IMG/VR virus record: IMGVR_UViG_3300048838_000528 | Span: 1 to 55,586 of that record | Strand: one strand, 5' to 3' | From: a virus | Lineage: Duplodnaviria > Caudoviricetes | Length of the DNA stretch: 55,586 nucleotides | In this document: piece after piece, positions 14,052-42,061 of the stretch | How the letters are laid out: each line of letters opens with the position of its first letter | Numbering within the stretch: position 1 is the stretch's first letter | Notes under the pieces: model-generated | What the model saw: only the letters and a program-made list of their open reading frames with translations | Databases searched by the model: none | What the model was told of the DNA's origin: nothing | Position numbers and translations under genes: made by a program

Positions 14052-14068
14052 GAAAAGGAGATTATAAA

Positions 14069-14482: not shown

Positions 14483-14498
14483 GAAAAGAGGTAATTAA

Positions 14499-15635: not shown

Positions 15636-15643
15636 GAGGAAAC

Positions 15644-18913: not shown

Positions 18914-18916
18914 AAT

Positions 18917-20300: not shown

Positions 20301-20303
20301 AAC

Positions 20304-20332
20304 TTGACATTACTACAAAAATATGGTATAAT
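20304..20332 (+). promoter_or_regulatory. sigma-A-type promoter for the sigma-factor operon
   Basis: TTGACA-17-TATAAT with TG extension. Confidence 0.9.
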
Positions 20333-20359
20333 TAAAAATAGTAAGGTGGTGATTGCATT

Positions 20360-20905
20360 GTGATGACAGAAAAAGAAATTGAAATGAAATTAGAGGAATA
20401 CAAAGGACTTTTAATTTCAACTGCGAAAAGATACTACCTAAACGAAATGACTTTTGATGATATTTACCAAGAACTTTGCATGGAGTTTGTGAAAGCATTG
20501 AAAAAACACGATGAAAATGGAAATGCGAACCTTAAAACGCTTTTCATAACTTATGCTAAAAATTGGTTCAAAGTGAAAATCAAATCACAAAATTACCAAA
20601 AACGTGGCGTACCATTGCGAATTGATGATGAAAATATTGAGAACACCGATTTGTATTCGTTTACCATGTCAAAAGACTATACACCCGATGAAATCGAATA
20701 TCAAGAGAGATTGGTGGAAGATATACGGTTTTTTCTTGACGAGCACAAATGGGGCAATATATTTTTGGAAGTTGAAGAAAATGGCAAGACCTTGCGAGAA
20801 ATCGCAATAGAAAAGGGCATTTCATTCCAAGCAATAGGAAGACAGTATTTAAAAGTCAAAGAAGAATTATTAAATTATTTACGGGAAAGAGGTTACGATT
20901 TATGA
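20360..20905 (+). CDS. sigma70-family RNA polymerase sigma factor
   Basis: region 2 DDIYQE...KALKKHD and region 4 GKTLREIAIEKGISFQAI. Confidence 0.82.
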   Translation: MMTEKEIEMKLEEYKGLLISTAKRYYLNEMTFDDIYQELCMEFVKALKKHDENGNANLKTLFITYAKNWFKVKIKSQNYQKRGVPLRIDDENIENTDLYSFTMSKDYTPDEIEYQERLVEDIRFFLDEHKWGNIFLEVEENGKTLREIAIEKGISFQAIGRQYLKVKEELLNYLRERGYDL

Positions 20906-21198
20906 ATTATGAAGAAATAATTAAAAACGTAAAACAATTAAGCAATTTAGCAGAATGGTACGAAAGCGATGTCATTAGCGATGGATACGAAGAGGCTAAA
21001 AAGCATAGAGAAGACATGACACGGCGTGTTATTAAGTTTATTGAGAAAGAGCATGAGTTGTTGGGGTTGTATCAAAAAGCATCACATTATCAAATAGGTC
21101 ATAATTTAGGCTGTTTATCTGTCGATGATAAAAAAAAATGGATTGAAATTGAAAAACAAGTTGATGATTTAGAAAAAGAATTGGAGGAAATGAAATGA
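20902..21198 (+). CDS. hypothetical protein, EKELEEMK family
   Basis: shared C-terminus with 7435-7644. Confidence 0.75.
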   Translation: MNYEEIIKNVKQLSNLAEWYESDVISDGYEEAKKHREDMTRRVIKFIEKEHELLGLYQKASHYQIGHNLGCLSVDDKKKWIEIEKQVDDLEKELEEMK

Positions 21199-21449
21199 TT
21201 ACACATGAAGAAGTAAAACAAGAATTAAAAGAACAAACCGATTATACATTTATAAAATTGCCAAAAACTTATCAATACTTAAATCAACAAGAAAAGAAAG
21301 ACAAGTTGCTTGAGTTGTATCGTAAAGCAAAACAGCAAGTTTTAGATTATGTAGATACTCCAAACAAAACTCCCAAAGTATTACATTTATTGTTAGATAT
21401 TCATGAAACATTAGACGAGATTGAAGCACTTGAGGAGGAACTGAAATGA
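21195..21449 (+). CDS. hypothetical protein, related to 20902
   Basis: KLLELYRK...EIEALEEELK. Confidence 0.75.
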   Translation: MITHEEVKQELKEQTDYTFIKLPKTYQYLNQQEKKDKLLELYRKAKQQVLDYVDTPNKTPKVLHLLLDIHETLDEIEALEEELK

Positions 21450-21760
21450 CACCTAAAGAAGCCTTTAAAAAATTATATGAAAAAGTTGGTAACCAATATA
21501 TACCTTTGGGTTTTGTAGGAAAACCAAAAGGAACACGAGACGAACTATGTTTGAAAGTCGATAACGCCTTCACCGAACTTGAAGTACTTAAACTACAGAA
21601 AGAAAAACTTATCAAAACTATTAAAAGTTTGATAAGCAAGACCGAAGCGTGGGAAGAAAAAGAAAATAAAACTGATTTTGAAAAGGGTATAGCAAGGGGT
21701 TATTCAACCATGTTGGACCAATTGTTGGTTGGTATTTGTTTTAATGAGGAGGAAAAATAA
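21446..21760 (+). CDS. hypothetical protein, MTPKEAFK family
   Basis: MTPKEAFK...NAFTELE.LK shared with 7641. Confidence 0.75.
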   Translation: MTPKEAFKKLYEKVGNQYIPLGFVGKPKGTRDELCLKVDNAFTELEVLKLQKEKLIKTIKSLISKTEAWEEKENKTDFEKGIARGYSTMLDQLLVGICFNEEEK

Positions 21761-22045
21761 ATGATTATTAAATTACCAAACGAGAACTTTTATGTGGATT
21801 TTGACAAGGATGGAAATTACACGCTATATGAAACTAAAACTACGCAAAGTGGGAAAAACGCAGGGACAAAATACGATACGCCTATTGGCTATTACAACAC
21901 GCTATCTTCTGCCGTAAAGCGTTACATTTCAAGACAACTTGGCGAAAGTGAAGATACCATTACGATTGAACAATTTTTAAAAATATATGAAAGATTAGTG
22001 AACGAAGTAACACAATATCTTATGCCGAAAGAGGTGAATGTGTAA
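21761..22045 (+). CDS. conserved phage hypothetical protein
   Basis: GKNAG...IGYY.TL..A pattern. Confidence 0.7.
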   Translation: MIIKLPNENFYVDFDKDGNYTLYETKTTQSGKNAGTKYDTPIGYYNTLSSAVKRYISRQLGESEDTITIEQFLKIYERLVNEVTQYLMPKEVNV

Positions 22046-23199
22046 TGTCAAATGATTTGCAAATGACAAAACAAAAAACAAGGTTAGAGGTTGCAAACGG
22101 AATTATTGCCGTTATTGAAAAGTTTAGTGAAGCACGGGCTTTAGAACTCGACAACTACCAAAAGACTTGTGGTGTAAACGCATTAAACTTTGTTGCAAAC
22201 ACTTTGGTAGATGATATTTCAGTGGATTTAAGCCGTGAGAACGTAATTAGTGTGGTTCAAAACCTTATGTTTTTAAGATTAAATGTAGCAAACGGCGAAG
22301 TTGCCCTAATTACACGTAATAGCAAAAAGGGTAAAATTCTTGAAATGCAAGTCATGGGAACAGGTTATGACGCACTTTTAAGAAACTTTGGGTTAAATAT
22401 CAATAAAGTTCACAATGCATGGCTAATTCGTGAAAATGACACGTATGTCCCAAGCGAATACGTTGGATTAAAACGCACTGAACCAATTTGGAAACTTGGT
22501 GGCAAGGACAAAAAAGAACGTGGTAGACTAATCAAGGTTGTTTACCCGATTGAACTCGAAGATGGAACTGTTGAATATTTAGAGGGCGAACGTGAAGATG
22601 TTAAGATTTCTCTAATTGCACAGGCTAAACAAAATATGATGAGAGCCAAAGATAAAAAAGAAGCCGAAAACATTTTAAGACAAATGGAAGAACTCGATTT
22701 AGATGAATTGCTTGGCAATCCCGAATGGCGTGATAAAGAAGTTGTAACAAAAGTTTATGATAATGGAAAATTTGTTGATGGGGCTACAAAGATTTTTAAT
22801 GACACTTATACGGGTTTCTCACGTGAAAATATGATTGAACGCAAAATGCGTAACCATGCGATTAGAAAGTATCCAAAAAATCTTGATAATGTTTATGTTC
22901 GTGAAGCATACGAAAGCACTTATGAAGAAGAAAGATACAACAAACCCATGAACGATAATATTTTAGAACATACACAAGGTGCTTTGGAAACCGAAACACA
23001 AGAAAAAGCAAATAGTATCGTGGTAGAAGAATTAGAAAAAGAAGTAGTTGAACCTGTTATTATTCAAGAAACAAAATCAACCGAAAATGATAGAAAAGTT
23101 GAAAATCAACCAAAAACGGTTGAACCAATCACGGTGGAAGCAGAACCTGTTTCGACCATAGACGAAATTGACAAAGATTTAGATGACTATTTCGAGTAA
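22045..23199 (+). CDS. recT: RecT-like single-strand annealing recombinase
   Basis: LRLN...E, G.GYDALLRNFG, WLIREND, VVYPI, M..RKMRN.A motifs; adjacent MBL hydrolase. Confidence 0.8.
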   Translation: MSNDLQMTKQKTRLEVANGIIAVIEKFSEARALELDNYQKTCGVNALNFVANTLVDDISVDLSRENVISVVQNLMFLRLNVANGEVALITRNSKKGKILEMQVMGTGYDALLRNFGLNINKVHNAWLIRENDTYVPSEYVGLKRTEPIWKLGGKDKKERGRLIKVVYPIELEDGTVEYLEGEREDVKISLIAQAKQNMMRAKDKKEAENILRQMEELDLDELLGNPEWRDKEVVTKVYDNGKFVDGATKIFNDTYTGFSRENMIERKMRNHAIRKYPKNLDNVYVREAYESTYEEERYNKPMNDNILEHTQGALETETQEKANSIVVEELEKEVVEPVIIQETKSTENDRKVENQPKTVEPITVEAEPVSTIDEIDKDLDDYFE

Positions 23200-24046
23200 A
23201 ATCGGTAGGCTTGTTAATTTGGGCAGTAGTTCAAAAGGCAATTCGTTTTATATTGAATTGCTGTCTAATGCAACTAACAAGCCATTACGCATACTGTTGG
23301 AGGTTGGTTTTGATTTCAATGAACTTTTAAAACGCATGGTAAAAAACGGTATCAAAATAAACGATATTGATTTGGTATTGGTATCCCATAAACACACCGA
23401 CCACAGTGCTTCTATGGTGGAGTTTGTAAAACGGGGAGTACCTGTTTACGCACCAAAACAAGCGTTTGAACATCACGGCATTTTTTACCAAGATGAATAC
23501 CTTTTAGAAGAATATAAGTGGAAGAAAATTGGTTTTGGTACACATATTATGGCTTTACCTTTAGAGCATTTTGATAAAGGTGAAAAAGTAGAAACATTTG
23601 GTTTTATATTAAATGTTGATAATGAAATGAATATGCTTTTCGCAACCGATACAAAATACATCCCACAAGATTTATCAAAGTTTAATTTTGATGTGATTTT
23701 TATTGAGGCAAACTATTTGGAAGATACCGTAAAATACGCATTGTTAGACGCTGAAAAAAGCAAGGACGCAAACAATATTTCACGATACGCACGCCTTGTG
23801 GATAGCCATATGAGTTTAGAAAACATGGTGCGAACTTTAGATGGAAGTATTAGAGAGGGTGCAAAGCCTTTTAATTTAAGTAAAACACAACTCATATTTT
23901 TAATTCATTTATCAAGTAATAGAAAAACAAATGAAACTTATTACAAAGAGTTTACACGAAATTATTTAGAGCGAACTAAAAGCAAGACAAGAAAAAACGA
24001 CAACTTAAAAATAGTTGTATGTAAAAGAGAGGGTTGTTTTTTATAA
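23183..24046 (+). CDS. MBL-fold metallo-hydrolase (YycJ-like nuclease)
   Basis: LGSSSKGN, SHKHTDH, ATDT, IEANY, SHMS, IHLS. Confidence 0.88.
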   Translation: MTISSKIGRLVNLGSSSKGNSFYIELLSNATNKPLRILLEVGFDFNELLKRMVKNGIKINDIDLVLVSHKHTDHSASMVEFVKRGVPVYAPKQAFEHHGIFYQDEYLLEEYKWKKIGFGTHIMALPLEHFDKGEKVETFGFILNVDNEMNMLFATDTKYIPQDLSKFNFDVIFIEANYLEDTVKYALLDAEKSKDANNISRYARLVDSHMSLENMVRTLDGSIREGAKPFNLSKTQLIFLIHLSSNRKTNETYYKEFTRNYLERTKSKTRKNDNLKIVVCKREGCFL

Positions 24047-24288
24047 TGAAAAACAATGCTATATTGCCTATTGAAAAAGAAAAAACTGTTACGGTTGAAA
24101 TTATATTTTCGTTCCCAAACGAAATGGAACATGAAGAAGTTGAAGGAATTGTAAAAGAAGGAGTAAAAACAATTTCTATGAATACTGATTTTTTTAAAAA
24201 CTTCAAAGAATACCACATAAATTACGATTATATGCTACCTGATTTTGATGGGTGCGTTTCATTTGAAGATAATTATTTTGAAGATTGA
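24046..24288 (+). CDS. hypothetical protein
   Basis: coupled ORF. Confidence 0.6.
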   Translation: MKNNAILPIEKEKTVTVEIIFSFPNEMEHEEVEGIVKEGVKTISMNTDFFKNFKEYHINYDYMLPDFDGCVSFEDNYFED

Positions 24289-24521
24289 TGGACTTAACAA
24301 AAAACGCATACGAAGAATGGTTTTATCTTAATGGAAATGTGGTTAGCGAAAAGAAATTTATGAATAGTTTTGATAGGAATACTTTGAACTATAAAACTTC
24401 CACACAATTCAAACTTGCAAAACGTATTTTGAGTGGTGAAAATGTTAAGATAAAACAAAATGTTTACCATTACGAAGAAAGGAATGTGGTGACAGGTGAA
24501 ATTAAAGAGCAGAAATATTAA
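24288..24521 (+). CDS. hypothetical protein
   Basis: coupled ORF. Confidence 0.6.
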   Translation: MDLTKNAYEEWFYLNGNVVSEKKFMNSFDRNTLNYKTSTQFKLAKRILSGENVKIKQNVYHYEERNVVTGEIKEQKY

Positions 24522-25338
24522 ACGTATACACATTATTGGGCAAAACGGAAATGAACCATCCAAAGTGATGTTTGAAATATTTGAACCACTTAAAAAGAAA
24601 AAGATAACTTCAACTTGGTTTCCTAATCTTTACGGTGCTTCTGATTTCAATAAAAAGGGTGACGAAGTATTAAAATTTTACAACTTTTTAGAAGGTGACG
24701 CCTTTAATAATTTTTATTCACTTCGTGGTTTTATTGCAGAACGTATCATTCAGGATAGCATAAAGAAAAAAGGCTATCCATATAGAATATTCAAAGATAC
24801 TTTTGACATCTTTTTATACACGAAAGAGGGAGATAACAAACTTTATAAGTACTTTGGTGGGCTTCCTGACTTGATTTACGAAAAAGATGGCTCTGAAAGA
24901 TTATTAGAAGTCAAGTCAAAAGAACTTGTTAAGAAAAATTATGTTGAAAGCAACCCACCTCAAACGGAAATTATGCAGGGGAAAATGTTAGCGTTGCTTC
25001 GTGGCTTGGATAGGGTTTCCATGACTTACGTTTTGTTTGGTGAAAAGGCTGAACGAAGCATGTATTTAGCAATGAACTCGCCGTTTGATTTGCAAGTAAG
25101 TGTCAAAAAGTTTGATGAAATCATGCCGGTTCTAAAATACAAAGAAGATTACGAAATTGTTGTGAAAGACTACACTGTAAACAAAAACGAACTTTTAGAA
25201 CAAATGAAAACGGCTTACAAATACGCCGATGGGTTTAGACAAACGCTTACGCTTAATTTAGACGATTTAAGCGAAGAAGTAAGAAAGCAAATCTTTGAAT
25301 TAGAAATGGAATTAGAGGAGGACTTCAAGAAAAAATGA
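24496..25338 (+). CDS. PD-(D/E)xK exonuclease (YqaJ/Cas4-like)
   Basis: RG..AE, GGLPD...LLEVKS, Q-containing downstream helix. Confidence 0.72.
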   Translation: MKLKSRNIKRIHIIGQNGNEPSKVMFEIFEPLKKKKITSTWFPNLYGASDFNKKGDEVLKFYNFLEGDAFNNFYSLRGFIAERIIQDSIKKKGYPYRIFKDTFDIFLYTKEGDNKLYKYFGGLPDLIYEKDGSERLLEVKSKELVKKNYVESNPPQTEIMQGKMLALLRGLDRVSMTYVLFGEKAERSMYLAMNSPFDLQVSVKKFDEIMPVLKYKEDYEIVVKDYTVNKNELLEQMKTAYKYADGFRQTLTLNLDDLSEEVRKQIFELEMELEEDFKKK

Positions 25339-25541
25339 CACTAAAAACATTCTTAAAAACAAAGGATAAAAAAGTTAAGGTACAGGTTCATTTGCAATTA
25401 TCAAGCGACCCAACTATCGAGGAATACTCGGTAAGTGACGTAAAAGATAGTATAATTGGCAGGGCACACTTATTTGATGTTGTAAATTGGACCGTTCAAT
25501 TTGACAATTATGAACCTTTAGTGGTGGTGACTGTAAAATGA
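25335..25541 (+). CDS. hypothetical protein
   Basis: ATGA-coupled ORF. Confidence 0.65.
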   Translation: MTLKTFLKTKDKKVKVQVHLQLSSDPTIEEYSVSDVKDSIIGRAHLFDVVNWTVQFDNYEPLVVVTVK

Positions 25542-25936
25542 CGTTAAAAAAGAAGTTAGAAGAATATCAAAAGGTTAAAAGACAAATCGAAGAACTCTAT
25601 CGTAAAAAGATGGCAATTGAAAAAACCATTATAGACGAAATGGAACAAATTGACCCACAAACTTATCAACGTAAAAATGAAATTGATTTAGATGACGCAT
25701 ATTCCTTGCTATTGATTTACGAAAACAATATTGACCCCAATTTAGTGCGTGAACATTATCCAACAATTTTCAATTATGGGCAACGGTTATATTTTGATTA
25801 CAAACAAGCCATGAGTTCTTTAGAAAGTGCAAAAGACTTTTGGTCGCTTATGAAAATTTGCAGGGTAAAAACGCCAAAACTGAAAGTGGTGAAAAAGAAT
25901 GGAAAAGGAACTTCAAGAAGAAATACGCAAGTATAA
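25538..25936 (+). CDS. hypothetical coiled-coil protein
   Basis: ATGA-coupled ORF. Confidence 0.7.
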   Translation: MTLKKKLEEYQKVKRQIEELYRKKMAIEKTIIDEMEQIDPQTYQRKNEIDLDDAYSLLLIYENNIDPNLVREHYPTIFNYGQRLYFDYKQAMSSLESAKDFWSLMKICRVKTPKLKVVKKNGKGTSRRNTQV

Positions 25937-26282
25937 AATGTTACAAGAAGATAGGTTCAAGAAACTAAACATTTATGACAATTATATTCAACTTTCTAAA
26001 CATAAAATACTTGATTTAATGAAGGTTCTAAAACTCGAAGAATATCAAGGCGTTAAAAGAATATTGAAACCTGAAACAAAAAATCTTACAATAGAAGAAA
26101 TCATGTTGCAATTTACCGATGTGGAAATTGTTAAATTATTAGTGTGCAACTTGGACTTGAAAAAAACGGTTGATAATGTTATGATTAGAAAAGGTTATTC
26201 ACGGGCGATGGCAGAAGCAATTGTTCGCAATATCAAACAAATGTATGAATATCAAATAGAAGAATTGGAGATAAAAAAATAA
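25899..26282 (+). CDS. hypothetical protein
   Basis: in-operon ORF. Confidence 0.7.
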   Translation: MEKELQEEIRKYKMLQEDRFKKLNIYDNYIQLSKHKILDLMKVLKLEEYQGVKRILKPETKNLTIEEIMLQFTDVEIVKLLVCNLDLKKTVDNVMIRKGYSRAMAEAIVRNIKQMYEYQIEELEIKK

Positions 26283-26494
26283 TGGCAAAATTAGTTATCA
26301 AGTTTAATGTAACAATGGAATACGATGGCAATAAAATACAAGATAGTGAAAACGCTTTTAAAGAGGCAACAACATTACTTGAAGATAAAAAAGAATTAGA
26401 AAACATTAAAAATGAAATTATTGACGATTTGATGGATGATGAAGATTATACAACTATTAAAATTAAAAACTTCAAATGGGAAGTGATTGAATGA
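26282..26494 (+). CDS. hypothetical protein
   Basis: GGAG RBS, TAATG coupling. Confidence 0.7.
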   Translation: MAKLVIKFNVTMEYDGNKIQDSENAFKEATTLLEDKKELENIKNEIIDDLMDDEDYTTIKIKNFKWEVIE

Positions 26495-26748
26495 ACGCAT
26501 ATGAAATGCCATTTGAAACCTATATGCACACAAAAAGTCTAATGTATTTCAAAGTGGTGGTTTTCAACTGTCATGGGGAATACGTAGACGAGTTTGACAA
26601 TTACGAAGAAAAGAATTACAAAGTCGAATTGGTTAGAAAGTATGCAAATTATATGGTAACGGAAGAACAAGTGACATTCAAAAAAGTTAAAGGATATGCC
26701 ATTTCAACAACCATTATTCACATACAGGAGTTGGGGTATGAAAATTGA
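26491..26748 (+). CDS. hypothetical protein
   Basis: ATGA-coupled ORF. Confidence 0.65.
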   Translation: MNAYEMPFETYMHTKSLMYFKVVVFNCHGEYVDEFDNYEEKNYKVELVRKYANYMVTEEQVTFKKVKGYAISTTIIHIQELGYEN

Positions 26749-26956
26749 TTTTGATTTTGTTGATGTGAAAATTGGAAAAGATTATTTAGACTTTACATGG
26801 GCTTGTGAATTTGGTTTTGGGCATTTGATAACCGATTGGGATTTTAATATTTTAGACAATGAATGTATGGACGATGATTTTTGCAACCAAGTAATAGAAG
26901 AAGGAAGAAAAAATATGTTAAATTATTTTGGAGGTGATTTGCCATTAGATATTTAG
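26738..26956 (+). CDS. acidic hypothetical protein
   Basis: AGGAG RBS, ATG 26738 within track ORF 26696..26956. Confidence 0.6.
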   Translation: MKIDFDFVDVKIGKDYLDFTWACEFGFGHLITDWDFNILDNECMDDDFCNQVIEEGRKNMLNYFGGDLPLDI

Positions 26957-27405
26957 CGATTAGCAAAGCACCAAATTACTTTGCATATGCCGTTTTCAAT
27001 GAACAAAAATTAGAAGAATACGGTTTGGAAACGCTAAAGGAATTTGATGATGTTTTAAGATTGAAAGAAGTGTTTAATCTTATGAATGAAATTATCATTT
27101 CCACACAAACGAGTGTTGTGGTAACTCATTCACTTGAAATTGAAAAAATATTAAAGAAAGATTTGGAACGGATTACCGAGTTCAAGGCAATGATAAAATT
27201 GGCTACCATCCAAACCCACCGTTTATATTTGGAAGCAAAAACAACAGGTTGGGAAAAGAAGATTTTGGGGCGTGTTACAAAAGCACAAAAACTAAAACTT
27301 ATTCGTGATGGATACGAAATTGAATTAGATGGTGTATTTGCAGGCGATTTGGCTGACGCTATCATTCTTGGGGAAGCCGTTGCACACAAGAGGATTTATG
27401 TATGA
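26944..27405 (+). CDS. RuvC-like protein, probable ATT start, degenerate active site
   Basis: GGAGGTG RBS 7 nt before ATT; IRYLAIS..., W.K...G...K, DLADAIILG. Confidence 0.6.
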   Translation: MRYLAISKAPNYFAYAVFNEQKLEEYGLETLKEFDDVLRLKEVFNLMNEIIISTQTSVVVTHSLEIEKILKKDLERITEFKAMIKLATIQTHRLYLEAKTTGWEKKILGRVTKAQKLKLIRDGYEIELDGVFAGDLADAIILGEAVAHKRIYV

Positions 27406-27797
27406 AACGTTACCGAACATTTATTTTTGATAATGACGAATTGCTTTACGTTCTTATTACAAAACAATACGATGGTGAAATTGTAAAGGATTTTGATTTG
27501 TATTATATGGGAAATCAAAAAGAGTGCATTTTAGACGTTTTAAGACGTTTTGGTTCAAAGTCGATTAACTATTCAAGTTTAATAGAAAACTTCGTTACAA
27601 CCGATTGTCATGCGTCTAATAACGTGTTACGATATTCACGCAACCTTTTAGATACCAAAAGTCTTAACATTACAAGATTTAGAGATAAAACACTACATTT
27701 CTTGGTATCTCAATTTGAAAGTGATTGGGGGGTAGTAAATTGGAATGGCTTTAGAAGAAAAGAAAACAAAAACGCCAAGAAAAAACCGAGCGATTAA
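27402..27797 (+). CDS. hypothetical protein
   Basis: GAGG RBS, ATGA overlap. Confidence 0.7.
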   Translation: MKRYRTFIFDNDELLYVLITKQYDGEIVKDFDLYYMGNQKECILDVLRRFGSKSINYSSLIENFVTTDCHASNNVLRYSRNLLDTKSLNITRFRDKTLHFLVSQFESDWGVVNWNGFRRKENKNAKKKPSD

Positions 27798-28158
27798 AAT
27801 TGTGGATGGCGTTTGGGGTGAAGAAATTTCAATTTATATTCAAGATTATGAAAACCCAGAAATTAAAATTACGTATTTAAGAAAAGAAAATGATATTTAT
27901 GAAAATGTTGTGAAAACTTTCATAAGAAAAGATGTAGAAGATTTAAAAATCAAGGGTTTTGTGGATTGGTTTTGGGTTGAGATGGCTATGCAAAGTGTAA
28001 GCAAAGTAAATGAAATATACCAAGTCGTACAGGGTTTGCTACACCCAAGTTTAGACCATATATTTTATGTCAAAAATTACACCAAACGTGAACTTCGACT
28101 AAACCCACTTTTTCAAGTCAAATTACCACACCCAAATTATAAGGAGTATAAAAAATGA
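27745..28158 (+). CDS. hypothetical protein
   Basis: in-operon ORF. Confidence 0.7.
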   Translation: MALEEKKTKTPRKNRAIKIVDGVWGEEISIYIQDYENPEIKITYLRKENDIYENVVKTFIRKDVEDLKIKGFVDWFWVEMAMQSVSKVNEIYQVVQGLLHPSLDHIFYVKNYTKRELRLNPLFQVKLPHPNYKEYKK

Positions 28159-28997
28159 AGTTTATCATAGGAGAAAAAGTTGATTTTTATTTTGAAGATG
28201 AAGTTTTATGTGATGGTGAAATAATTAGCCTCGAATATAAAATGTCAGGAACATATTATCACATATCGCATAAAAATTATTGCTATTTTATAAGTGAAAA
28301 TGCTATTTTCAAAAGGGAAACAAAAAGGGAATATGATTTTAGAGGTTTAAATTCGAGTGACGTTTACCAACGCATACACGGAATTTCAATGTATGGGAAC
28401 AACAAAGTTATTTTAGAACAAAACCAAATAACCACAGAAATAATAACATTGGCAAATGCAAGGGGAGTTGGAATTGAAGTTAAAAAACCAATAGAAATAC
28501 AAACGGTGACAAATGGTGACTTTATTAGTGACGTTTGGGATTGGAGTTTTCCGGAACTTTGGATTGACGCAAAAAAACAAAAACCTTACGTTACTTACGG
28601 GGCAAACGGTGACTTTAGTAGTGACATTTGGACTTGGTCTTTTGCGGAAGAGATAGACAAAATTATTAAAGATTTAAAGGAGGCAAAAAAAACGGATATG
28701 CTATTATTTCCCAATTATGAGTTTGCGTTAAAAGATGATGTTAAAAACAAATTAAAAGAAATTAAATCGCCATATTATTCCAATTTACCCGACACCGTTT
28801 ATTTTAATGACAAAAAGAAAGCAACAACTTTAATGTATAATCAAAAGGCAACCGTAGTAAAGTGTGGTAAGGGTGATAAATATTCAAGACGCATTGGTTT
28901 CTTGGAGGCTTATTTCCAATCAACGTGTGGGCTATCCAAAACTCAAGCCAAAAAGTATTTAGAAAACATTGTGAAAGATAAAGAGGAAAAGAAATAA
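28155..28997 (+). CDS. multi-module hypothetical protein
   Basis: internal repeat NGDF.SD.W.WSF twice; C-terminal VYFND...TVVKC..GD.Y...G domain common in phages. Confidence 0.75.
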   Translation: MKFIIGEKVDFYFEDEVLCDGEIISLEYKMSGTYYHISHKNYCYFISENAIFKRETKREYDFRGLNSSDVYQRIHGISMYGNNKVILEQNQITTEIITLANARGVGIEVKKPIEIQTVTNGDFISDVWDWSFPELWIDAKKQKPYVTYGANGDFSSDIWTWSFAEEIDKIIKDLKEAKKTDMLLFPNYEFALKDDVKNKLKEIKSPYYSNLPDTVYFNDKKKATTLMYNQKATVVKCGKGDKYSRRIGFLEAYFQSTCGLSKTQAKKYLENIVKDKEEKK

Positions 28998-29230
28998 TGG
29001 CTAAACCTATTTTTGTTATTAAAGTAGATAGAGAAGTTTTGTTAATTTCATCTAAAATGGAAGAATTTAGAAAAGTTTTTGATAGCATATGCAAATCCAT
29101 TGGTGACGAATATCATATACTTGCTATGACTAAAGAATATGATGTTTCCGTATTAAATGGTGAATTATTTGAAGTTCGTGAGGAACAATGGGAACATATT
29201 TTAAAAATAATAAAAGGAGAAAGTGAGTAA
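28997..29230 (+). CDS. hypothetical protein
   Basis: coupled ORF. Confidence 0.65.
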   Translation: MAKPIFVIKVDREVLLISSKMEEFRKVFDSICKSIGDEYHILAMTKEYDVSVLNGELFEVREEQWEHILKIIKGESE

Positions 29231-29499
29231 TGCAAATATTTTTATTTATTGTTTTGCTGTTTGCTGTTGGTTTAATGCGTTCTTTGCCTAAAGTTATTAC
29301 AAAATGGGGTAAAGAAGATAACGATGTTAGCACTATAATTTTAGCACTTATTTTATCAATTGGTTTCCAATTCGTATTACCATTTGTCTTAAATTGGTAT
29401 TTAAACTTTTTATTTAATTTTGTTTTAAATTATTGGGTTGCGTTTGGTTTATTGTTTGTTGTTTCAGTATTTGTGGAACATATTGACGTTAATGAATAG
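29230..29499 (+). CDS. small membrane protein (about 3 TM)
   Basis: three hydrophobic stretches. Confidence 0.7.
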   Translation: MQIFLFIVLLFAVGLMRSLPKVITKWGKEDNDVSTIILALILSIGFQFVLPFVLNWYLNFLFNFVLNYWVAFGLLFVVSVFVEHIDVNE

Positions 29500-29509
29500 G
29501 AGAAATTAA

Positions 29510-30040
29510 ATGAACTTTGAAGAAAAATTAGGATTATTAGAACGTGGATTAAAACGCAGGGTAGAAAACTATCCAAAATATGTTGAGAGTGGTAAGGTAC
29601 AGCAAGAAAAAGTACAAAAGTTTGTGGACGAATTTAATAGAATTATTGAAGTTTACAAAAATGATTACAAAGTTAGAAAGCAACTTCAAAATGATAAGTC
29701 CTTAATTGCGATGGCGGGTAGCAAATCAAAACTTAAAAAGTTGTTGGAAAATGAAGTTGAGTTTGTAAAAATGGTAGAAACAGGGCGTGATGAATATCTT
29801 AAAAACTACGGTCAAGAAATCTTTAGAATACAAATGATGTTAGACGAAGCAAAAGAGGGATTACCTGACGCTGAATATTTATTAAAACTTATTGCTCACA
29901 ATAATTACGATGAAAAAATGTTAGATAGTTTTATGAACTTATTCTTGCTACCCGTTCTAACCGATTGGAAACAGTATGAAGAAGATTTAAAAAAACAAGA
30001 ACAAGAAAACATACAAGATAACATACAAGATAGCGAGTGA
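29510..30040 (+). CDS. hypothetical helical protein
   Basis: AGGAG RBS. Confidence 0.75.
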   Translation: MNFEEKLGLLERGLKRRVENYPKYVESGKVQQEKVQKFVDEFNRIIEVYKNDYKVRKQLQNDKSLIAMAGSKSKLKKLLENEVEFVKMVETGRDEYLKNYGQEIFRIQMMLDEAKEGLPDAEYLLKLIAHNNYDEKMLDSFMNLFLLPVLTDWKQYEEDLKKQEQENIQDNIQDSE

Positions 30041-30390
30041 TAAAAATGAGAAAGAAAATATTTATAGTACTTTTATTCTTACTTTTATTTGCAATGTTTG
30101 GTTGCACTGAAAAACAAGAAGAAGATAAACACGAAAACGAATACGTTCGTGTGGATAGATTGGAATATATTGACAACGAAAAAATACCCGTTGTGGATTT
30201 GGAACACATTTACGAATTTTTAGACCCAATTGTGATGGTTAAAAATGAAAATAGTTATTACTTTTATTTTGAAGTTGAAACCTATCCATTCTATCGTTTA
30301 GTAAATAATGAAAAAATATATCCCTATTACGTGAATGAAATCTCTTATATTAAGGTGTCTGACATTACAAATATCAAAGTTGGTGATTAG
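30037..30390 (+). CDS. lipoprotein
   Basis: RKKIFIVLLFLLLFAMFG-C lipobox. Confidence 0.72.
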   Translation: MIKMRKKIFIVLLFLLLFAMFGCTEKQEEDKHENEYVRVDRLEYIDNEKIPVVDLEHIYEFLDPIVMVKNENSYYFYFEVETYPFYRLVNNEKIYPYYVNEISYIKVSDITNIKVGD

Positions 30391-31410
30391 ATGAACGAAA
30401 ATGAAAAATACATTGATGAGGTATTTGGCAAGGTAGAGAAAAAGGATATGCAAATACCCGAAAAAGATGGTAAAGAAGCAAGTGGTCTTTTATGGGAAAT
30501 CATTTTAACTGTTTTGTTTGCCTTAATGACTTTGTTTATTCTTGGTATTTACGAACTGTTTTCAAGCGGTTGGGATTGGTCCATCTATCAAAGTTCTGAC
30601 TTTTGGATTAGATACGGATTACTTCAAGGTGCTTCTTGGTTTGCAAGAATATGGATTTATGTTATCCGTGTAAAACATCACGAAAGAACCGATAAGGCTT
30701 ACTTATCACTTGAAGAAGATTTGCAAGAATTTGTAAATGCTGATTTTGAAACACCTTTTATTGAAACGGACGCAAACGCTGACGATTTTGAACGGAAAAA
30801 ACGCTCGTGGATTAACAAGCAAAAGTTAAAACTCATTAAGTTTGCTAACAAATATCAAATAACTAATATCTTGCCATCCGTAAAAAAGGTAAACGAATTG
30901 GAATTTGATATGCACGGTTTTCAATTAAAGAGCGATAAAAAAATGTCACAACGCACCGAAAAGCGTGTGAATAGAAAAATCACAAACATTTTAAAAACAA
31001 TACGAAATGATTGGTGTGAACAAAACCTTGAAGCCGTAAAAGTAAGATACAACAAGGTTTCAAGAACTATCTTAACAAGTGGTTACGTTTCAAATAGAAG
31101 TGGTGATGGTTCACCCGATTACAAAAAGAATAGTGCAAAAACATTTATAAATAGCACCGTGCCTGCTTTCTTATTTGTAAGTGCTTTCATGTTTCTTATC
31201 GTACCACTAACGGGCGATATGGATAATTCGGCTGACGCTTGGTTTAAGTTCCTAACAAACTTCATGCTTGTTTTGGGCAGTGGTGCTATGATGTGGTACA
31301 ACTCACCCGAACTGTTTAGACAAACTTCTCGTAAGGCAATGTCAGAGCGTGTTGGTACATTAAATAACTACGCAAAGAAACGTGGTATAAAAATTAAAAA
31401 GGACAAATAA
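30391..31410 (+). CDS. membrane protein (2 TM + soluble domain + 2 TM)
   Basis: hydrophobic pairs near both termini. Confidence 0.78.
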   Translation: MNENEKYIDEVFGKVEKKDMQIPEKDGKEASGLLWEIILTVLFALMTLFILGIYELFSSGWDWSIYQSSDFWIRYGLLQGASWFARIWIYVIRVKHHERTDKAYLSLEEDLQEFVNADFETPFIETDANADDFERKKRSWINKQKLKLIKFANKYQITNILPSVKKVNELEFDMHGFQLKSDKKMSQRTEKRVNRKITNILKTIRNDWCEQNLEAVKVRYNKVSRTILTSGYVSNRSGDGSPDYKKNSAKTFINSTVPAFLFVSAFMFLIVPLTGDMDNSADAWFKFLTNFMLVLGSGAMMWYNSPELFRQTSRKAMSERVGTLNNYAKKRGIKIKKDK

Positions 31411-31424
31411 ATGTCCTTTTTTTT
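31396..31424. terminator. bidirectional terminator between the convergent arms
   Basis: aaaaa-ggaca-aataaa-tgtcc-tttttttt. Confidence 0.75.
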
Positions 31425-31950
31425 ATGTGTTTAATTTTGCTTCAACTTTAGCCAAGTCATTTTGAATGTTACGCTTTTTAAGTTCTTCTTGCATGGCTTT
31501 CTTCAAAGCAAGAACTTCATCGTAAGGTTTATAGAATGGCAAAGATACAAGCGTAGAACCTGCAATAATCATAAAAAGTAAAACAAATGCTTCAACAAAA
31601 AAGTTTGTTAGAACAACTACAATAGATAAAATAGCCATCGTGATTGCCAACTTTGAACGTTGATAGGTGATACCGAAACTTGCGTCGGCTTCTTTCATGG
31701 CGTCTTTTATCTTATCCCTAAAAATAAGAAACGCACCGAATAGACCAACCACACCCCAACCCGTTAAAGCGTATCCTGCGTCACGAAATGTAAACAAATC
31801 GTATCGAACCGAAAGGTATGCAAAAGGTAATCCTGCTTGGACTAAAACCCCCGTTAGCCCTAACATTTTCGGTGTACCCGTAATTTTAACTTTTGTTTTC
31901 TTTTTGTTTAATTTGATATAATCGGCAGGCTCTCTTTTGAGTTTAGCCAT
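31423..31950 (-). CDS. 4-TM membrane protein (holin/lysis candidate)
   Basis: four hydrophobic segments; last gene of the late arm. Confidence 0.7.
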   Translation of the reverse strand: MAKLKREPADYIKLNKKKTKVKITGTPKMLGLTGVLVQAGLPFAYLSVRYDLFTFRDAGYALTGWGVVGLFGAFLIFRDKIKDAMKEADASFGITYQRSKLAITMAILSIVVVLTNFFVEAFVLLFMIIAGSTLVSLPFYKPYDEVLALKKAMQEELKKRNIQNDLAKVEAKLNT

Positions 31951-31954
31951 ACGA

Positions 31955-32449
31955 CTACACCTCCTGTATTTTGTCTTTTAATGCGTCTTGTGATTGTGTA
32001 GAAATTTGTTGTTTTGCAACGTCATTTTGAATAGATAATCCTAAAATGGAAATTGCCTCTTGTGAAACAGTCGTAGCCTTTTTAGCAAAATCAAACATGG
32101 CTTGCTTTTGGTTTAACGGAACGTTAGCAACAGCAAGTGCTGAAATTGCCATGTCTTGCCAAAATTGTTTTTCTTTTATTTCACCTTGTAACTGTGTTTG
32201 CAACGGCTTGATAACATTTGCAACCATTTCGTTTTTGAAAGAAGTAAACTCAACACCAATTTCCTTTTTAACATCCGTAAATGTCTTGTGTGCTACCGTA
32301 GTGAAGTTCAAAAGTCTATCAACACGTTTAGCACCCAATCTTGAACCAACAAAAGTGTTCCATGCAACCACACCAAGTGTACCTAAACTAACACCAAATT
32401 GTGCAATTAAAGCGTAGCCTTCTTGCAATTCTTGTATTAACCAATCCAT
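31955..32449 (-). CDS. N-terminal TM plus coiled-coil protein
   Basis: hydrophobic N-terminus, helical body, lysis-module position. Confidence 0.7.
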   Translation of the reverse strand: MDWLIQELQEGYALIAQFGVSLGTLGVVAWNTFVGSRLGAKRVDRLLNFTTVAHKTFTDVKKEIGVEFTSFKNEMVANVIKPLQTQLQGEIKEKQFWQDMAISALAVANVPLNQKQAMFDFAKKATTVSQEAISILGLSIQNDVAKQQISTQSQDALKDKIQEV

Positions 32450-32718
32450 AATTTCACCTTTCCTTCTAATTCATTTATTTTTTCAAGCATTTCAGCATTA
32501 ACTAATTTTAACTTTTCAATGCGTTCATCTTGTTTTAAAACCTTGTCTACCAAATCGCCAATAGTCATATCAATTTTTTTAATGTAAACCCTTTCAATAG
32601 GATGAAATTCCTTTACACCTTTTACAACTGAATATATTTGCCCATCAGGTAATTTCTTTTTTTCTTGAACGGTTTTAGCGTCCTTTAACATATCTTTGTC
32701 TACCACGATATCACTCAC
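32437..32718 (-). CDS. hypothetical protein with coiled-coil C-terminus
   Basis: in-operon ORF. Confidence 0.7.
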   Translation of the reverse strand: MSDIVVDKDMLKDAKTVQEKKKLPDGQIYSVVKGVKEFHPIERVYIKKIDMTIGDLVDKVLKQDERIEKLKLVNAEMLEKINELEGKVKLWIG

Positions 32719-32815
32719 CTTTCTCTTTTTTGTTTTTATTATCTAATTCACCGTACGCCTTGAATGTTACTGCAAGACTAATGAAAACGATAAAAGCAAG
32801 GAGGGAAGTTGCCAT
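32711..32815 (-). CDS. 34-aa single-TM peptide
   Basis: MATSLLAFIVFISLAVTFKAYGELDNKNKKEKGE. Confidence 0.5.
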   Translation of the reverse strand: MATSLLAFIVFISLAVTFKAYGELDNKNKKEKGE

Positions 32816-37737: not shown

Positions 37738-40700
37738 TTATTCTACTTTATAGTAGTAATATACTGGGCTACATATATAGCCACTATTTCTCGTCACTCT
37801 AACAATCGTACCCAATCCGTAGTCATTTGCTGAATAGTTTGCTTTAAGCCATGATAGGATGGTTGTAAATGTTGCGCATGTCGTACCACTCGATGTATAA
37901 ACTAAATCGTATGAGTAACCTGTTTCTAATGTGTACTTCCATTCAAGCGTGTCATATGTTGTTGTTTCGTCGATGTATCTCACGTTTGTATTGTTGTTGA
38001 TGTTGCCAATGTTGGTTGTATGGGCTACGGTTTCTAAATCAATAATGCTTTCCCAATAATCATCCCCATACTCAAACGTTTCGGTTTCCGTAATTACTCT
38101 CGAGCCTGATATTCTATTTATATTGCCTATCGTGGTTAAGTGATTGATGGTTTCCGTGTCTATCACATCTTGCCAGTAGTCATCACCGTATTCAAAGTAT
38201 TCACTTTCTGTTATAACTCTTTCTTGTGGTGCTAAAACATTAATATTACCAACTTGCGTTGTATGTTCAATTGTTTGTGGGTCTATAATGCTTTCCCAGA
38301 AGTCATCGCCATACAAGAAATCTTGTGTTTCTATAATATGTCTAATTTGTGGTGATAGGGTATTCATGTTTCCAACTTGCGTTGTATGTTCCAAAGTATC
38401 CGTTTCTATGAAAATTCTAACTTGGTCGTAAATAATACTTCGATTACCGATTGTTGTTTGGTTTGGATAGAAGTGCAATCTCGTTGCATTAAACCCATTA
38501 TAATCTTGATTACAAGCCATGTAAAGGTTTCCTAAACTGTCACCAATAGCCCAAGATGTAAGAAATGATGTATTTATGGTTGAACTAAATCTAAATTGCC
38601 CATTTAAATATGAAGCATTTACACCATTTTCAATTTTAATAGGCGTCCCATATCCTGTTTTTACTTTATAAATACTGAACTTATCATATTGCGTACCGTT
38701 TGTATAGGGATAAAACCACATTTCCGTTCCAACGACTTCATCAAATTCCGTTTCGGGATTATTAACCAAAAAGTTATTAGTGAAAAATGATATGCCTAAA
38801 ACATATTCTTTATAATCAAATGGCATGACACTTGTTTGAATAGCAACTTTTATACTTTGCGATTTATCTTTCTTGCCAAACATAAGTGGATTGTAACTTG
38901 TATGCGTTGTAACTACGCTACCACTTCTATGTGTTACAAAATTACCAATTTCAAACTCATTTTGGTCGTGTATTCTTGTTAGTGGATAATTTTGTAGCCT
39001 TTCTGTTTCACTATAATTATCATCGTGTAATAAATCATCAATAAGAAATCTTGTTGCAAAAGCAAACCATAACTTCGTAAACTCACCATTTAAATCCGTG
39101 TATCTAACTGCTTTATTATAATAAAGTGTTGATGAACCAGTTTCTGCTTGAACAGCGTCACCTGCTACTTGGTTTCCACTAAAACCAAATACAAATGAAA
39201 ATCCATGTTTCCCACCAAACGAACGAACGGGATTTAAAATAAAATATTTGTAGTCGTAATCGTCAAGATAAACTTTTTCAAAACCATCCGTTTTAATGTA
39301 AGCCGTTGTAACCTTTGTTTTACCACCTGTAACCGTATCATTCCAATCATTCATCAAAGTACCAAAAATCAATTTCAATGCGTTATCTGTAATCATCGTT
39401 GTTTCTTCTACAAATGAAATGTTTGGTTTTGTAATAAAAATATTTTCGTTAAATATTTCTTGTCTTTCAAAAACTTGATTTGATGATGGAATTTCTTGCC
39501 AACGGTATTCTTGGTCTACTTTAGTCCATAAACTCAAACGGTTATGGTCTTTAGTTGCTACATAACTCGCCTTAACAAACTCGTTATGAAACTCAAACTT
39601 TTCTTCTACAATTATGTAATCGTTTTCATCTTTCATCCCCCACCTTAATAAATTGGAATAATCCTCATATATTTTTTGGAATTGAATAGATGGAACGCCT
39701 GCACGTTGTGTATCGCCATGTGCTCTCAAACTTGCAAATGATATATTCATCGCCTTATCGTTTTGGTTTAGGCGTCCTTCACTGTAATATAAACTATTTG
39801 ATATGTTTTCACGGTATGTCTGAAATGGAAAACTCTCAAATGTAATATATTTTAATTGAAATTGCAAATCTCTAAACTCGGCTTGCGTTGGCATATCATA
39901 AGATATATTATAACCCGAATAAACAACGGTATCTTCGCCTAAAATTGTATATCTTGGCGTTATGCCATGCCGTGTAATATATTCATTCAATGCTTCATAA
40001 ATTGTACCATACACAAGATTTGTTTGTGTAACTTCACCTTGCACTGCACTCAAATCTATGAACTTTGTGCCTTGTTGCCAATAAAGATTTGAAACGGCAT
40101 TTTCACGTAGCCCAACATTTTCATCAAACATTCTTGCGTACTCAATTGTTGGGAAATTAACCGTTTTTAATTTTAATAACCATTCTTCACGGTTTATAAA
40201 TCTTGGTGTTAAATCTAATACAAAATCATTTATTTCTTCGGGGTCTGTATCGCCAAGTGGTATTGCACGTTCTATTACTATGCTATCTATAAAAGCGTAA
40301 AATGATGTTGGCATATACATTTCTGCTTCAAGTTGTAATCCAAAATCAGTATCCAAAATCTGAACTTTAGCAGAACGAACTGTTTTGTAAAGATTTTCGG
40401 CAGGTGATGTAACCGTTTCTTCTTCAAAAGAAGTTGGTAATACACGTTCACCCCAAACAATACCTTGATTGAATAGGTTTACTGCTTCTTGGCTTGAACC
40501 ATAAGCAATTAAATCTTCTAAATCAAAACTTCCTGTTATCTTATTATATTCATCCATAGAAAGCATATCAATATCTTCACTGTTGTAATAAAATCTGCTG
40601 ATAGCATTTACGTATGAAAATATCGTATTTAAAATTTGTCTCATGGTTGCCTTTTGCAAAAACATTTGAGGCATTTCCACACTTGCTAAATAATCTTCTA

Positions 40701-41547
40701 TTTCGGTGTCAATATTAAATAATCTCGTATCATCATGGTATATTTTGCTTTCAAAAGGTTTGCTATCACGAATAATATTGATTGCGTCTAAAACGCTTAA
40801 ACCACTTCTTGCAATCGCCGTTACATAAAATCTTTTATCTATTGTATCACCCAAAGTGACGTGATTAAAATAAATGTCGATTGTATGTTCTCCAATATCA
40901 TCAAAATCAAACGTGTAATCGCCTGACGTTAAATTGTGTGCCGTTTCACTATCAACTTGAATGTAAACATCTCGTTCTGAAAAATAAGATAGATTAGTGC
41001 CTGCACTTGATGTGACTTGTATGCACTTTCCAACTTGACTAATCGTAATTGTTTCGCCTGTGTAATATTGTGTTCTTATATCCACATAAGGCATAAAGTA
41101 TTCCAAGTCGATTGAATAATCTGTGGATGGTGCAGTATGTGTACTTACAAGATTGTAATTATTCATAACCCTAAATGGTGCAGGATTATTATTCTTTAAT
41201 GGTTTAGTATAAGTAAACGTGTGGTAAAGGTAACTATCGTACTTGCCCGAATATTCCATGACACGTAAATTGTGTTTCCATTCGCCATACTTTGAACCTT
41301 CTTCAACTTCATCACTTAAAATAATATAGGTTGCTTCCACTTGATTTCCTGCGTAATCTTCACTTAATATTTCAAGTAAACCACGCATTGGATACTCATA
41401 ATTTCTTATCGTAAATGGGAGGTGTAAGCCTGCTTCGTCTAAAGGTTCTTCAAACTTACCGATAGCACTCGCACCGATTGAAACGTTTTCGAGTTCTACG
41501 CCATTCAACATAAACTTATTCTTAAAATATTTTCTATATGTTGGCAT
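37738..41547 (-). CDS. large tail-tip/hub protein with C-terminal 40-aa repeats
   Basis: 1269 aa in tail position; repeats YGDD(F/Y)W...HTT..GN. Confidence 0.65.
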   Translation of the reverse strand: MPTYRKYFKNKFMLNGVELENVSIGASAIGKFEEPLDEAGLHLPFTIRNYEYPMRGLLEILSEDYAGNQVEATYIILSDEVEEGSKYGEWKHNLRVMEYSGKYDSYLYHTFTYTKPLKNNNPAPFRVMNNYNLVSTHTAPSTDYSIDLEYFMPYVDIRTQYYTGETITISQVGKCIQVTSSAGTNLSYFSERDVYIQVDSETAHNLTSGDYTFDFDDIGEHTIDIYFNHVTLGDTIDKRFYVTAIARSGLSVLDAINIIRDSKPFESKIYHDDTRLFNIDTEIEDYLASVEMPQMFLQKATMRQILNTIFSYVNAISRFYYNSEDIDMLSMDEYNKITGSFDLEDLIAYGSSQEAVNLFNQGIVWGERVLPTSFEEETVTSPAENLYKTVRSAKVQILDTDFGLQLEAEMYMPTSFYAFIDSIVIERAIPLGDTDPEEINDFVLDLTPRFINREEWLLKLKTVNFPTIEYARMFDENVGLRENAVSNLYWQQGTKFIDLSAVQGEVTQTNLVYGTIYEALNEYITRHGITPRYTILGEDTVVYSGYNISYDMPTQAEFRDLQFQLKYITFESFPFQTYRENISNSLYYSEGRLNQNDKAMNISFASLRAHGDTQRAGVPSIQFQKIYEDYSNLLRWGMKDENDYIIVEEKFEFHNEFVKASYVATKDHNRLSLWTKVDQEYRWQEIPSSNQVFERQEIFNENIFITKPNISFVEETTMITDNALKLIFGTLMNDWNDTVTGGKTKVTTAYIKTDGFEKVYLDDYDYKYFILNPVRSFGGKHGFSFVFGFSGNQVAGDAVQAETGSSTLYYNKAVRYTDLNGEFTKLWFAFATRFLIDDLLHDDNYSETERLQNYPLTRIHDQNEFEIGNFVTHRSGSVVTTHTSYNPLMFGKKDKSQSIKVAIQTSVMPFDYKEYVLGISFFTNNFLVNNPETEFDEVVGTEMWFYPYTNGTQYDKFSIYKVKTGYGTPIKIENGVNASYLNGQFRFSSTINTSFLTSWAIGDSLGNLYMACNQDYNGFNATRLHFYPNQTTIGNRSIIYDQVRIFIETDTLEHTTQVGNMNTLSPQIRHIIETQDFLYGDDFWESIIDPQTIEHTTQVGNINVLAPQERVITESEYFEYGDDYWQDVIDTETINHLTTIGNINRISGSRVITETETFEYGDDYWESIIDLETVAHTTNIGNINNNTNVRYIDETTTYDTLEWKYTLETGYSYDLVYTSSGTTCATFTTILSWLKANYSANDYGLGTIVRVTRNSGYICSPVYYYYKVE

Positions 41548-41572
41548 TGTGCTATCTCCTTTTCTTCAATTT

Positions 41573-42052: not shown

Positions 42053-42061
42053 CTATTCCAC

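Follow-up and report, generated by a model that had tools for sequence, protein, structure and literature searches.

A candidate holin-only exit cassette in a tailed phage with links to the wall-less Izemoplasma order

We analyzed the virus record IMGVR_UViG_3300048838_000528 of the IMG/VR database over its whole length, a stretch of 55,586 bases that CheckV rates as 100% complete and that we refer to as the window. At the end of its late operon, a row of short coupled genes for membrane and helical proteins takes the place where holin and endolysin genes usually stand, and no wall hydrolase was recognized beside it or elsewhere in the window. We propose, giving the idea an even chance, that these genes form a holin-only exit cassette and that the tailed phage carrying them infects a bacterium without a wall, either a member of the Izemoplasma order or one of its close wall-less relatives. 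We infer every functional role in the cassette from gene position, coupling, topology, and the comparison with a parallel cassette in a second phage. Judged from the sequence, the layout is that of a late cassette of the PBSX or Clostridioides difficile type from which the enzyme and every known holin family are missing.

The late cassette and the search for a wall hydrolase

The window is built of two convergent arms, one on the + strand (1..31410) and one on the - strand (31423..end). An initial annotation of the sequence had described, in the usual holin-endolysin position, a 34-aa membrane peptide, a coiled-coil protein, an N-terminally anchored coiled-coil protein, and a four-helix protein, all converging on another four-helix protein and a lipoprotein from the other arm. 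These open reading frames (ORFs) are all present with the topologies described, the partners on the + strand being a 339-aa protein with two plus two helices and the lipoprotein, and the position is as claimed, directly after the gene for a 1240-aa tail fiber and that for a peptide of the CD1375 family (Table 1). XkdX-like peptides precede holin genes and mark the junction between fiber and lysis genes in Firmicute phages; the one in the window, recognized with other profile collections, has no match in Pfam. At this end of the late operon, stop and start codons overlap and the genes have good Shine-Dalgarno sites; the operon ends at a two-way terminator.

Table 1 Features at the junction of the two arms, with positions in the window
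Feature	Position	Strand	Details
Tail fiber, 1240 aa	32935..36657	-	Last large structural gene before the cassette; no Pfam match above cut-off
XkdX-like peptide, CD1375 family, 38 aa	32817..32933	-	NF040910, 39.6 bits (cut-off 22.5); phrog_1382, E 1.6e-7
Single-helix membrane peptide, 34 aa	32711..32815	-	ATG at 32815 after a GGGGG Shine-Dalgarno site; predicted hydrophobic helix, residues 1-25
Soluble protein with heptad-rich C-terminus, 93 aa	32437..32718	-	7 of 8 a/d positions hydrophobic, residues about 44-73
N-anchored helical protein, 164 aa	31955..32449	-	Hydrophobic segment 11-36; strong Shine-Dalgarno site GGAAAGGTGA
Four-helix membrane protein, 175 aa	31423..31950	-	Hydrophobic stretches 28-48, 58-81, and 96-142 (double length); Shine-Dalgarno site AGGAGGTG
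Two-way intrinsic terminator	31396..31421		10-pair stem, T-runs on both strands
Membrane protein with 2+2 helices, 339 aa	30391..31410	+	Hydrophobic segments 27-61, 76-92, 250-278, and 283-303
Lipoprotein	30037..30390	+	Signal peptide and FGC lipobox; likely start ATG 30046, giving 114 aa
Tandem 12-nt units (ACATACAAGAWA), 31 nt	30001..30031	+	Just upstream of the lipoprotein gene
Three-helix membrane protein, 89 aa	29230..29499	+	Three hydrophobic segments; missing from the list of the initial annotation

The main holin candidate is the 175-aa protein, whose gene is the last of the late arm. Both of its termini are charged, with K/E-rich sequence over the C-terminal 35 residues, and an AlphaFold2 (AF2) model places helices at residues 26-49, 65-89, 95-114, and 119-174 at a mean predicted local distance difference test (pLDDT) score of 57.4. 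The 34-aa peptide ends in the Lys-rich tail KNKKEKGE and is a candidate small holin, antiholin, or timer; it matched no family in Pfam, PHROGs, NCBIfam, or PADLOC. Between these two, the gene for the 93-aa protein overlaps both neighboring genes, which suggests translational coupling, and its product has a sub-threshold NCBIfam match (E 0.0013) as its sole match. Holins have one to four transmembrane helices, a hydrophilic and highly charged C-terminal tail, and a length of roughly 60-185 aa. A topology of this kind is predicted for the 175-aa protein (four helices, K/E-rich C-terminus) and for the 34-aa peptide (one helix, charged tail), and the small membrane proteins that end the late operon after the tail fiber and XkdX-like peptide are those of 34, 164, and 175 aa. 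The name 'hemolysin' attached to a PHROGs match (phrog_1193, E 2.5e-4) concerns a region inside the tail fiber, outside the cassette.

The initial annotation had also stated that no amidase, glycosidase, or peptidase is recognizable anywhere in the genome. With regard to wall hydrolases this stands over 200 frames: profile searches for lysins found no peptidoglycan hydrolase and no wall-binding domain in the 94 coding-strand ORFs that made up the set searched for families (Pfam, E ≤ 0.01; PHROGs, E ≤ 0.001; NCBIfam), and none in 106 further six-frame stop-to-stop frames of at least 60 aa (Pfam, E ≤ 0.001). With regard to peptidases in general it does not, as the window encodes a head-maturation protease (DUF2213/phrog_530), the sole peptidase found and not a wall hydrolase. 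A GT2 glycosyltransferase is present as well and is not a wall hydrolase either. A lysin concealed by a frameshift is disfavored by the negative six-frame Pfam scan.

One cassette member, the 164-aa protein, was considered as a signal-anchor-release endolysin. Its N-terminal segment (GYALIAQFGVSLGTLGVVA) is rich in Gly, Ala, and Ser and weakly hydrophobic (mean hydropathy 1.5), and the anchor region scores 1.39-2.08 in 16 of 17 aligned sequences, the exception being a sequence that is shorter at the N-terminus. The family comprises 20 representatives at 50% clustering, drawn from 1.84 billion proteins; the alignment (A1) contains the 164-aa query and 16 of these representatives, the other four being fragments that were left out. 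Among the 17 aligned members the only invariant columns are F49 and P111, with no conserved acidic, His, or Cys residue, and Pfam has no match for any of them. The missing Pfam match and the missing conserved catalytic-type residues argue against the endolysin assignment and, going by its conservation pattern, the protein is not an enzyme. Its AF2 model is all-helical (pLDDT 57.0).

The late cassette of PBSX has the gene order xkdX - xhlA - xhlB - xlyA, and C. difficile prophages carry CD1375-like peptides. As in these types, the cassette of the window stands right after the tail fiber and an XkdX-like/CD1375 peptide, and small coupled membrane proteins with charged tails end the late operon. 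Unlike in both, no gene for an amidase, muramidase, or peptidase follows, nor does any wall enzyme occur elsewhere in the window. Further differences are that XhlA, XhlB, an XlyA-type amidase, and holin families have no match among the ORFs of the window, and that the conserved genes of the window include one for a large 2+2-helix protein. Lambda S105 is the canonical large-hole holin, forming holes of hundreds of nanometers. The 175-aa protein resembles it as a small multi-helix membrane protein with a charged C-terminus and, as its place in the operon implies, late expression; it differs in having four predicted helices and no link in sequence or fold, and hole formation is only putative.

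On the + strand, the 339-aa protein contains a basic central domain of about 160 aa between its helix pairs, and the lipoprotein has a weak match to phrog_8801 (E 4.6e-4). The 89-aa protein, for which Pfam, PHROGs, NCBIfam, and PADLOC gave no family match, is an alternative holin-like candidate. The tandem repeat upstream of the lipoprotein gene consists of two and a half 12-nt units and encodes the C-terminal ...ENIQDNIQD of a 176-aa protein.

Part of this arrangement is preserved in a metagenome relative (L004), which shows, in order, the end of a 164-aa-type gene, a gene for a 177-aa protein (68% identical), a convergent gene of the 339-aa type (53.7%), and one for a 171-aa protein (65%). 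Because the lipoprotein and 89-aa genes are absent at the same junction of this relative, the 164-, 175-, and 339-aa genes appear to be the conserved core and the others add-ons. The counterpart of the 176-aa protein in the relative has a single ENIQD unit in its C-terminus. Homologs were collected for the 175-aa protein (n = 13) and the 339-aa protein (n = 14), none of them named. Some homologs of window proteins, known at the protein level, come from longer contigs (P0013, 24.8 kb; P0119, 23.3 kb; P0060, 47.9 kb; P0097 and P0098, 53-60 kb). Within IMG/VR, no match was found with the 164-aa and 175-aa proteins alone or with profile A3, and no distant member of the 164-aa family was found either; the portal profile retrieved fragments of 6-14 kb only, none of which reaches the cassette.

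A parallel cassette occupies positions 1-3577 (L020) of an 18-kb phage contig, G043:C37, which belongs to a metagenome-assembled genome (MAG) from the putative host order discussed below. This contig has a G+C content of 41% and a replication module that differs from that of the window. It starts with the end of a tail fiber gene, to which the C-terminal 300 aa or so of the window's fiber are 42.6% identical (E 8.6e-62), and continues with genes for an XkdX-like peptide (40 aa), a membrane protein (103 aa), a helical protein with an N-terminal anchor (151 aa), a four-helix protein whose tail is charged (161 aa), and a 2+2-helix protein whose middle part is basic (275 aa), after which early genes follow directly. 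The 151-, 161-, and 275-aa proteins mirror the 164-, 175-, and 339-aa proteins of the window in order and build and are all encoded on one strand, which supports the choice of the initial annotation to include the convergent 339-aa gene. Pfam found no lysin in the 22 ORFs of the contig that were scanned.

Evidence on the host

The portal protein provided the first of several signals. Starting from its 77 strong homologs in a large protein collection, we built a profile (A4) from the query and 14 of them and scanned it against one genome per species for 185,579 species. Of 33 pattern matches, a single one was a true relative (53% identity); its contig, 4.2 kb long, is part of a MAG titled Candidatus Izemoplasma sp. 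The order of this MAG, represented by 158 genomes, was taken as the putative host order. Portal relatives occur in two of these 158 genomes, G001 and G043, on phage contigs that are syntenic with or related to the window. In addition, G001 has a structural contig of 13 kb that encodes a capsid protein with 64% identity to that of the window, and G043 has a 25-kb all-phage contig (C22) syntenic with the structural arm of the window. A further contig of G043 (C8, 58 kb) shares three early genes with the window, among them one with 85% DNA identity along 135 nt. Since all these phage contigs are free contigs inside bins, the link that they provide is suggestive. The genome G043 holds at least three phage-only contigs sharing genes with the window (C8, C22, and C37; 58, 25, and 18 kb); either several phages infect this population or the bin attracts AT-rich phage contigs.

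Two short stretches of the window have near copies in genomes of the order. The repeat at 30001-30031 is matched in 17 of the 158 genomes, in several at 97-100% identity over 31-33 nt, and the matching three-unit arrays of the order lie at the -35 region of a gene of the Fic family, on chromosomal-looking contigs. This Fic-type repeat is enriched in the order and not exclusive to it. The second stretch, of 55 nt at 54043-54097, lies between the - strand genes 53653..53910 and 54087..54416, adjoins a strong - strand promoter (TTGACA-17-TACTAT), and has 87-93% identity to a promoter region with an inverted repeat that was found in 5 of the 158 genomes. In these genomes the region precedes a 254-aa gene and a gene for an AbiEii toxin (PF08843, E 9.5e-24), followed in one case by a gene for a TIR protein, and the abiE-like loci lie near tRNA-Cys among housekeeping-looking genes. 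The operator motif was found in one of 399 scored genomes of a phylum sample, and that one is a member of the order. In the phage, the stretch may act on the regulator of this host abortive-infection operon as a decoy, or may serve to sense it.

The order itself shows a loss of wall-synthesis genes. The transpeptidase domain of penicillin-binding proteins (PBP; PF00905) was detected in 2 of its 158 genomes versus 10 of 14 well-known control genomes, and the same counts (2/158 versus 10/14) were obtained for the shape, elongation, division, and sporulation family (SEDS; PF01098, FtsW/RodA/SpoVE); neither gene type is present in G001 or G043. One study (PMC10868615) places a complete loss of peptidoglycan at the ancestor of the Izemoplasmatales. 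PBP and/or SEDS genes are present in three genomes of the order (G149, G026, and G013; both in G149), which may be walled exceptions, mis-classified genomes, or contaminated bins.

The initial annotation had suggested a wall-less host and took the use of TGA as a stop codon to fit Acholeplasma/Izemoplasma-like Mollicutes rather than Mycoplasma. TGA ends 27 of the 94 ORFs, those for the methylase, the sigma factor, and TerL included, and Trp is encoded by TGG throughout, from which the standard bacterial code follows. Together with the portal match, the contigs in 2 of the 158 genomes, the promoter matches, and the loss of PBP and SEDS genes, this agrees with the suggestion; host evidence for a walled Firmicute was not found among these signals, which point to the Izemoplasma order. 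A host that is a wall-less bacterium of this order, or a close wall-less relative, is thus supported by sequence comparison, not proven.

Other comparisons were less informative. A tblastn search with the portal against cultured phages gave 21-26% identity among the 25 of 61 matches listed, and the spread of these matches over many host phyla makes them uninformative on the host. A scan of the one-per-species genome contigs for the major capsid protein found none. Short DNA matches to the order genomes were tried as CRISPR spacers and dismissed: most lie in the terminator or within coding sequence rich in Lys and Glu, and a clean match of 31/33 (G071:C37) has no repeats around it and is not in an array. 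One wastewater sequencing run contains 0.07 of the sampled words of the window, which is no evidence of habitat.

Possible routes of virion exit

In the mechanism that we propose, the coupled block after the tail fiber and XkdX-like peptide would yield the 34-, 93-, 164-, and 175-aa proteins late in infection. The 175-aa protein would accumulate in the cell membrane, probably together with those of 164 and 339 aa, until, at a set time, large membrane lesions open, as with canonical holins. In a wall-less cell these lesions alone would release the virions. Setting or modulating the timing would be the part of the 34-aa peptide and of the 93-aa protein. Two variable additions, the lipoprotein and the 89-aa protein, may serve to exclude other phages. 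As the host would have no peptidoglycan, we propose that the phage needs neither an endolysin nor a virion-borne wall hydrolase.

Several results weigh against this proposal. Neither a holin family nor any other named one in Pfam, PHROGs, NCBIfam, or PADLOC matches the cassette proteins (PADLOC gave nothing for 13 proteins), PDB sequence profiles returned nothing below E 0.8, and a search of the ESM Atlas with the 175- and 339-aa proteins gave no score ≥0.9 and no family. Both AF2 models, of the 175-aa and 164-aa proteins, are poor (pLDDT 57.4 and 57.0) and offer no fold evidence. The cassettes of the window and of G043:C37 share architecture only: comparison by hhalign gave probabilities of 1.1, 0.3, and 0.07, and all BLASTP E values were above 1. 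About 60 ORFs of the window have no assigned function after Pfam, PHROGs, and NCBIfam, which leaves room for a lysin of unknown fold, and relatives that are very distant escape profile searches at E ≤ 0.01. As to the host, the phage contigs in MAGs could be binning artifacts; the repeat motif occurs in 7 of 401 genomes of a class sample, 5 of them outside the order; and CD1375/XkdX-like, YopX, and DnaD-like genes are typical also of phages of walled Firmicutes. The host prediction by CRISPR spacers that had been suggested at the outset came to nothing, as DNA searches over the 158 order genomes found no spacer. No integrated prophage and no member of the 164-aa family (0/158) were found in these genomes, and none of the three cassette proteins was found in G001 or G043.

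Among the other explanations, we regard it as unlikely that the genes have a role apart from exit, such as superinfection exclusion, receptor masking, membrane-anchored replication or assembly, or counter-defense, with exit proceeding by other means, e.g. through the 89-aa protein or a host factor. The 339-aa, lipoprotein, and 89-aa genes do belong to the other, early/middle arm, the last two are dispensable in L004, and Pfam and PHROGs gave no holin family match. Lipoproteins of Gram-positive phages are known exclusion factors (e.g. Ltp of phage TP-J34). The four - strand genes, however, form the end of the late structural operon and are coupled to it, the gene for the 2+2-helix protein of G043:C37 runs in the same direction as the late cassette there, and PADLOC has no match.

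It is likewise improbable, in our estimation, that in tailed phages of wall-less bacteria the N-anchored, four-helix, and 2+2-helix proteins make up a dedicated three-part exit machine that replaces holin and endolysin, recurs in the same layout without sequence similarity, and maybe acts by controlled rupture or vesiculation of the membrane in place of classical holin holes, with the near-copy operators of the abiE-like operon and the Fic gene serving in addition as decoys for, or listening posts on, regulators of host defense.

A non-lytic or slow, budding-like release, in which the membrane proteins would remodel or pinch the membrane around finished virions, seems to us quite unlikely. Such an exit is reported for short-tailed phages of other wall-less bacteria; a review (PMC13375369) gives it for Acholeplasma phage L3 and for Spiroplasma phages SpV3 and ai. 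These phages resemble the present one in being tailed and, if the proposed host is right, in having to leave a wall-less cell without a wall enzyme; they differ in that their hosts belong to other orders, and the table of that source lists no accession for L3 and SpV3, so that these two have no sequence to compare. In favor of budding, the cassette is unusually rich for a plain holin, with two long helical/coiled-coil proteins and a large 2+2-helix protein with a basic center, and the three-part architecture recurs in the second phage (G043:C37). Yet the proteins show no similarity to membrane-remodeling families in Pfam, PHROGs, NCBIfam, the ESM Atlas, or PDB profiles, and the genes occupy the exact site of lytic cassettes.

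Finally, we consider very improbable a walled host attacked by a hydrolase of unrecognized fold, hidden among the roughly 60 unassigned ORFs or in the 1269- and 1240-aa tail proteins: most ORFs do lack a family, phages of walled hosts carry the Firmicute-phage markers too, binning underlies the MAG links, and the weak Gly/Ala/Ser-rich N-anchor of the 164-aa protein resembles a signal-anchor-release domain. Against this, the 200 frames yielded neither a lysin nor a wall-binding domain, conserved residues of catalytic type are missing from the 164-aa family, independent signals come from chromosomal-looking contigs of an order that lacks PBP/SEDS genes, and the second phage contig in the same MAG set (G043:C37) likewise shows no lysin in its 22 scanned ORFs.

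Other genome features and significance

The remaining gene content is that of a tailed phage, probably a virulent one, with a G+C content of 27-41% along the window (about 33% overall). Recognized genes encode a DNA methylase, YopX, a DnaD-like replication protein, SSB, RtcB, and an SbcCD-like pair, as well as RecT, a hydrolase of metallo-beta-lactamase fold, a sigma factor of the ECF type, and the GT2 glycosyltransferase. The structural arm encodes the terminase, a DUF1073-type portal, the DUF2213 head protease (phrog_530), and a DUF2184-type major capsid protein. No integrase was found among the 94 ORFs (Pfam, PHROGs), a tRNA scan found no tRNA gene in the window, and megablast of 20 kb of the window gave no match to cultured phages.

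Several details of the structural arm and of one + strand gene deserve a record. In the tail module (37738..43123, - strand) the tape-measure protein is not recognizable. A 1269-aa tail protein looks, by eye, unlike a helix-rich tape-measure protein and ends in about four repeats of some 45 aa (...TQVGNxN...YGDDYWExxID...); a conserved counterpart is present both in G001:C39 (1342 aa, 30% identity) and in G043:C22 (1216 aa), and neither Pfam nor PHROGs has a match for it. The terminase ORF (700 aa, TTG start) and the portal ORF overlap by about 200 nt (50338..50540), and the portal is 611 aa long in the window versus mostly 530-575 aa among its homologs; one or both starts were therefore probably called too early. 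A 280-aa ORF (28155..28997) contains an internally duplicated motif (NGDFxSDxWxWSFxE), and its C-terminal part is a separate, shorter gene of 163 aa in L004.

The literature offers one point of comparison for a wall-less deep-sea host. Hujiaoplasma phage zrk29-1 (OP650936) is reported in PMC10470597 to infect a cultured, wall-less bacterium of the deep sea as a chronic phage. That source names Hujiaoplasma nucleasis and also discusses Izemoplasma; our literature search found no other phage reported for such a bacterium. It is unrelated to the phage of the window, the DNA methylase being the sole tblastn match (33% over 57 aa), and its G+C content is 63% versus about 33% for the window and 29-34% for the chromosomal-looking order contigs that were fetched (L037-L039). 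The OP650936 record carries the flag UNVERIFIED_ORG and no annotation. Given this flag and the odd G+C content, the host assignment of zrk29-1 looks doubtful.

At the gene level, the exit of tailed phages from wall-less cells is essentially undescribed. In the full-text literature searched, which covers subscription journals thinly, no lysin-less cassette was found described for any phage of a wall-less bacterium, and in the available part of the 2024 review of Mollicutes phages (PMC13375369) the words lysin, endolysin, and holin are absent. The window may be the first complete tailed-phage genome linked to the free-living Izemoplasma order and, as a complete genome with a defined set of candidate genes, it makes exit from wall-less cells testable: the prediction is that a holin-type protein alone would suffice for virion release. 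It would also suggest a rule for host prediction, by which a complete tailed phage without any wall hydrolase flags a wall-less host.

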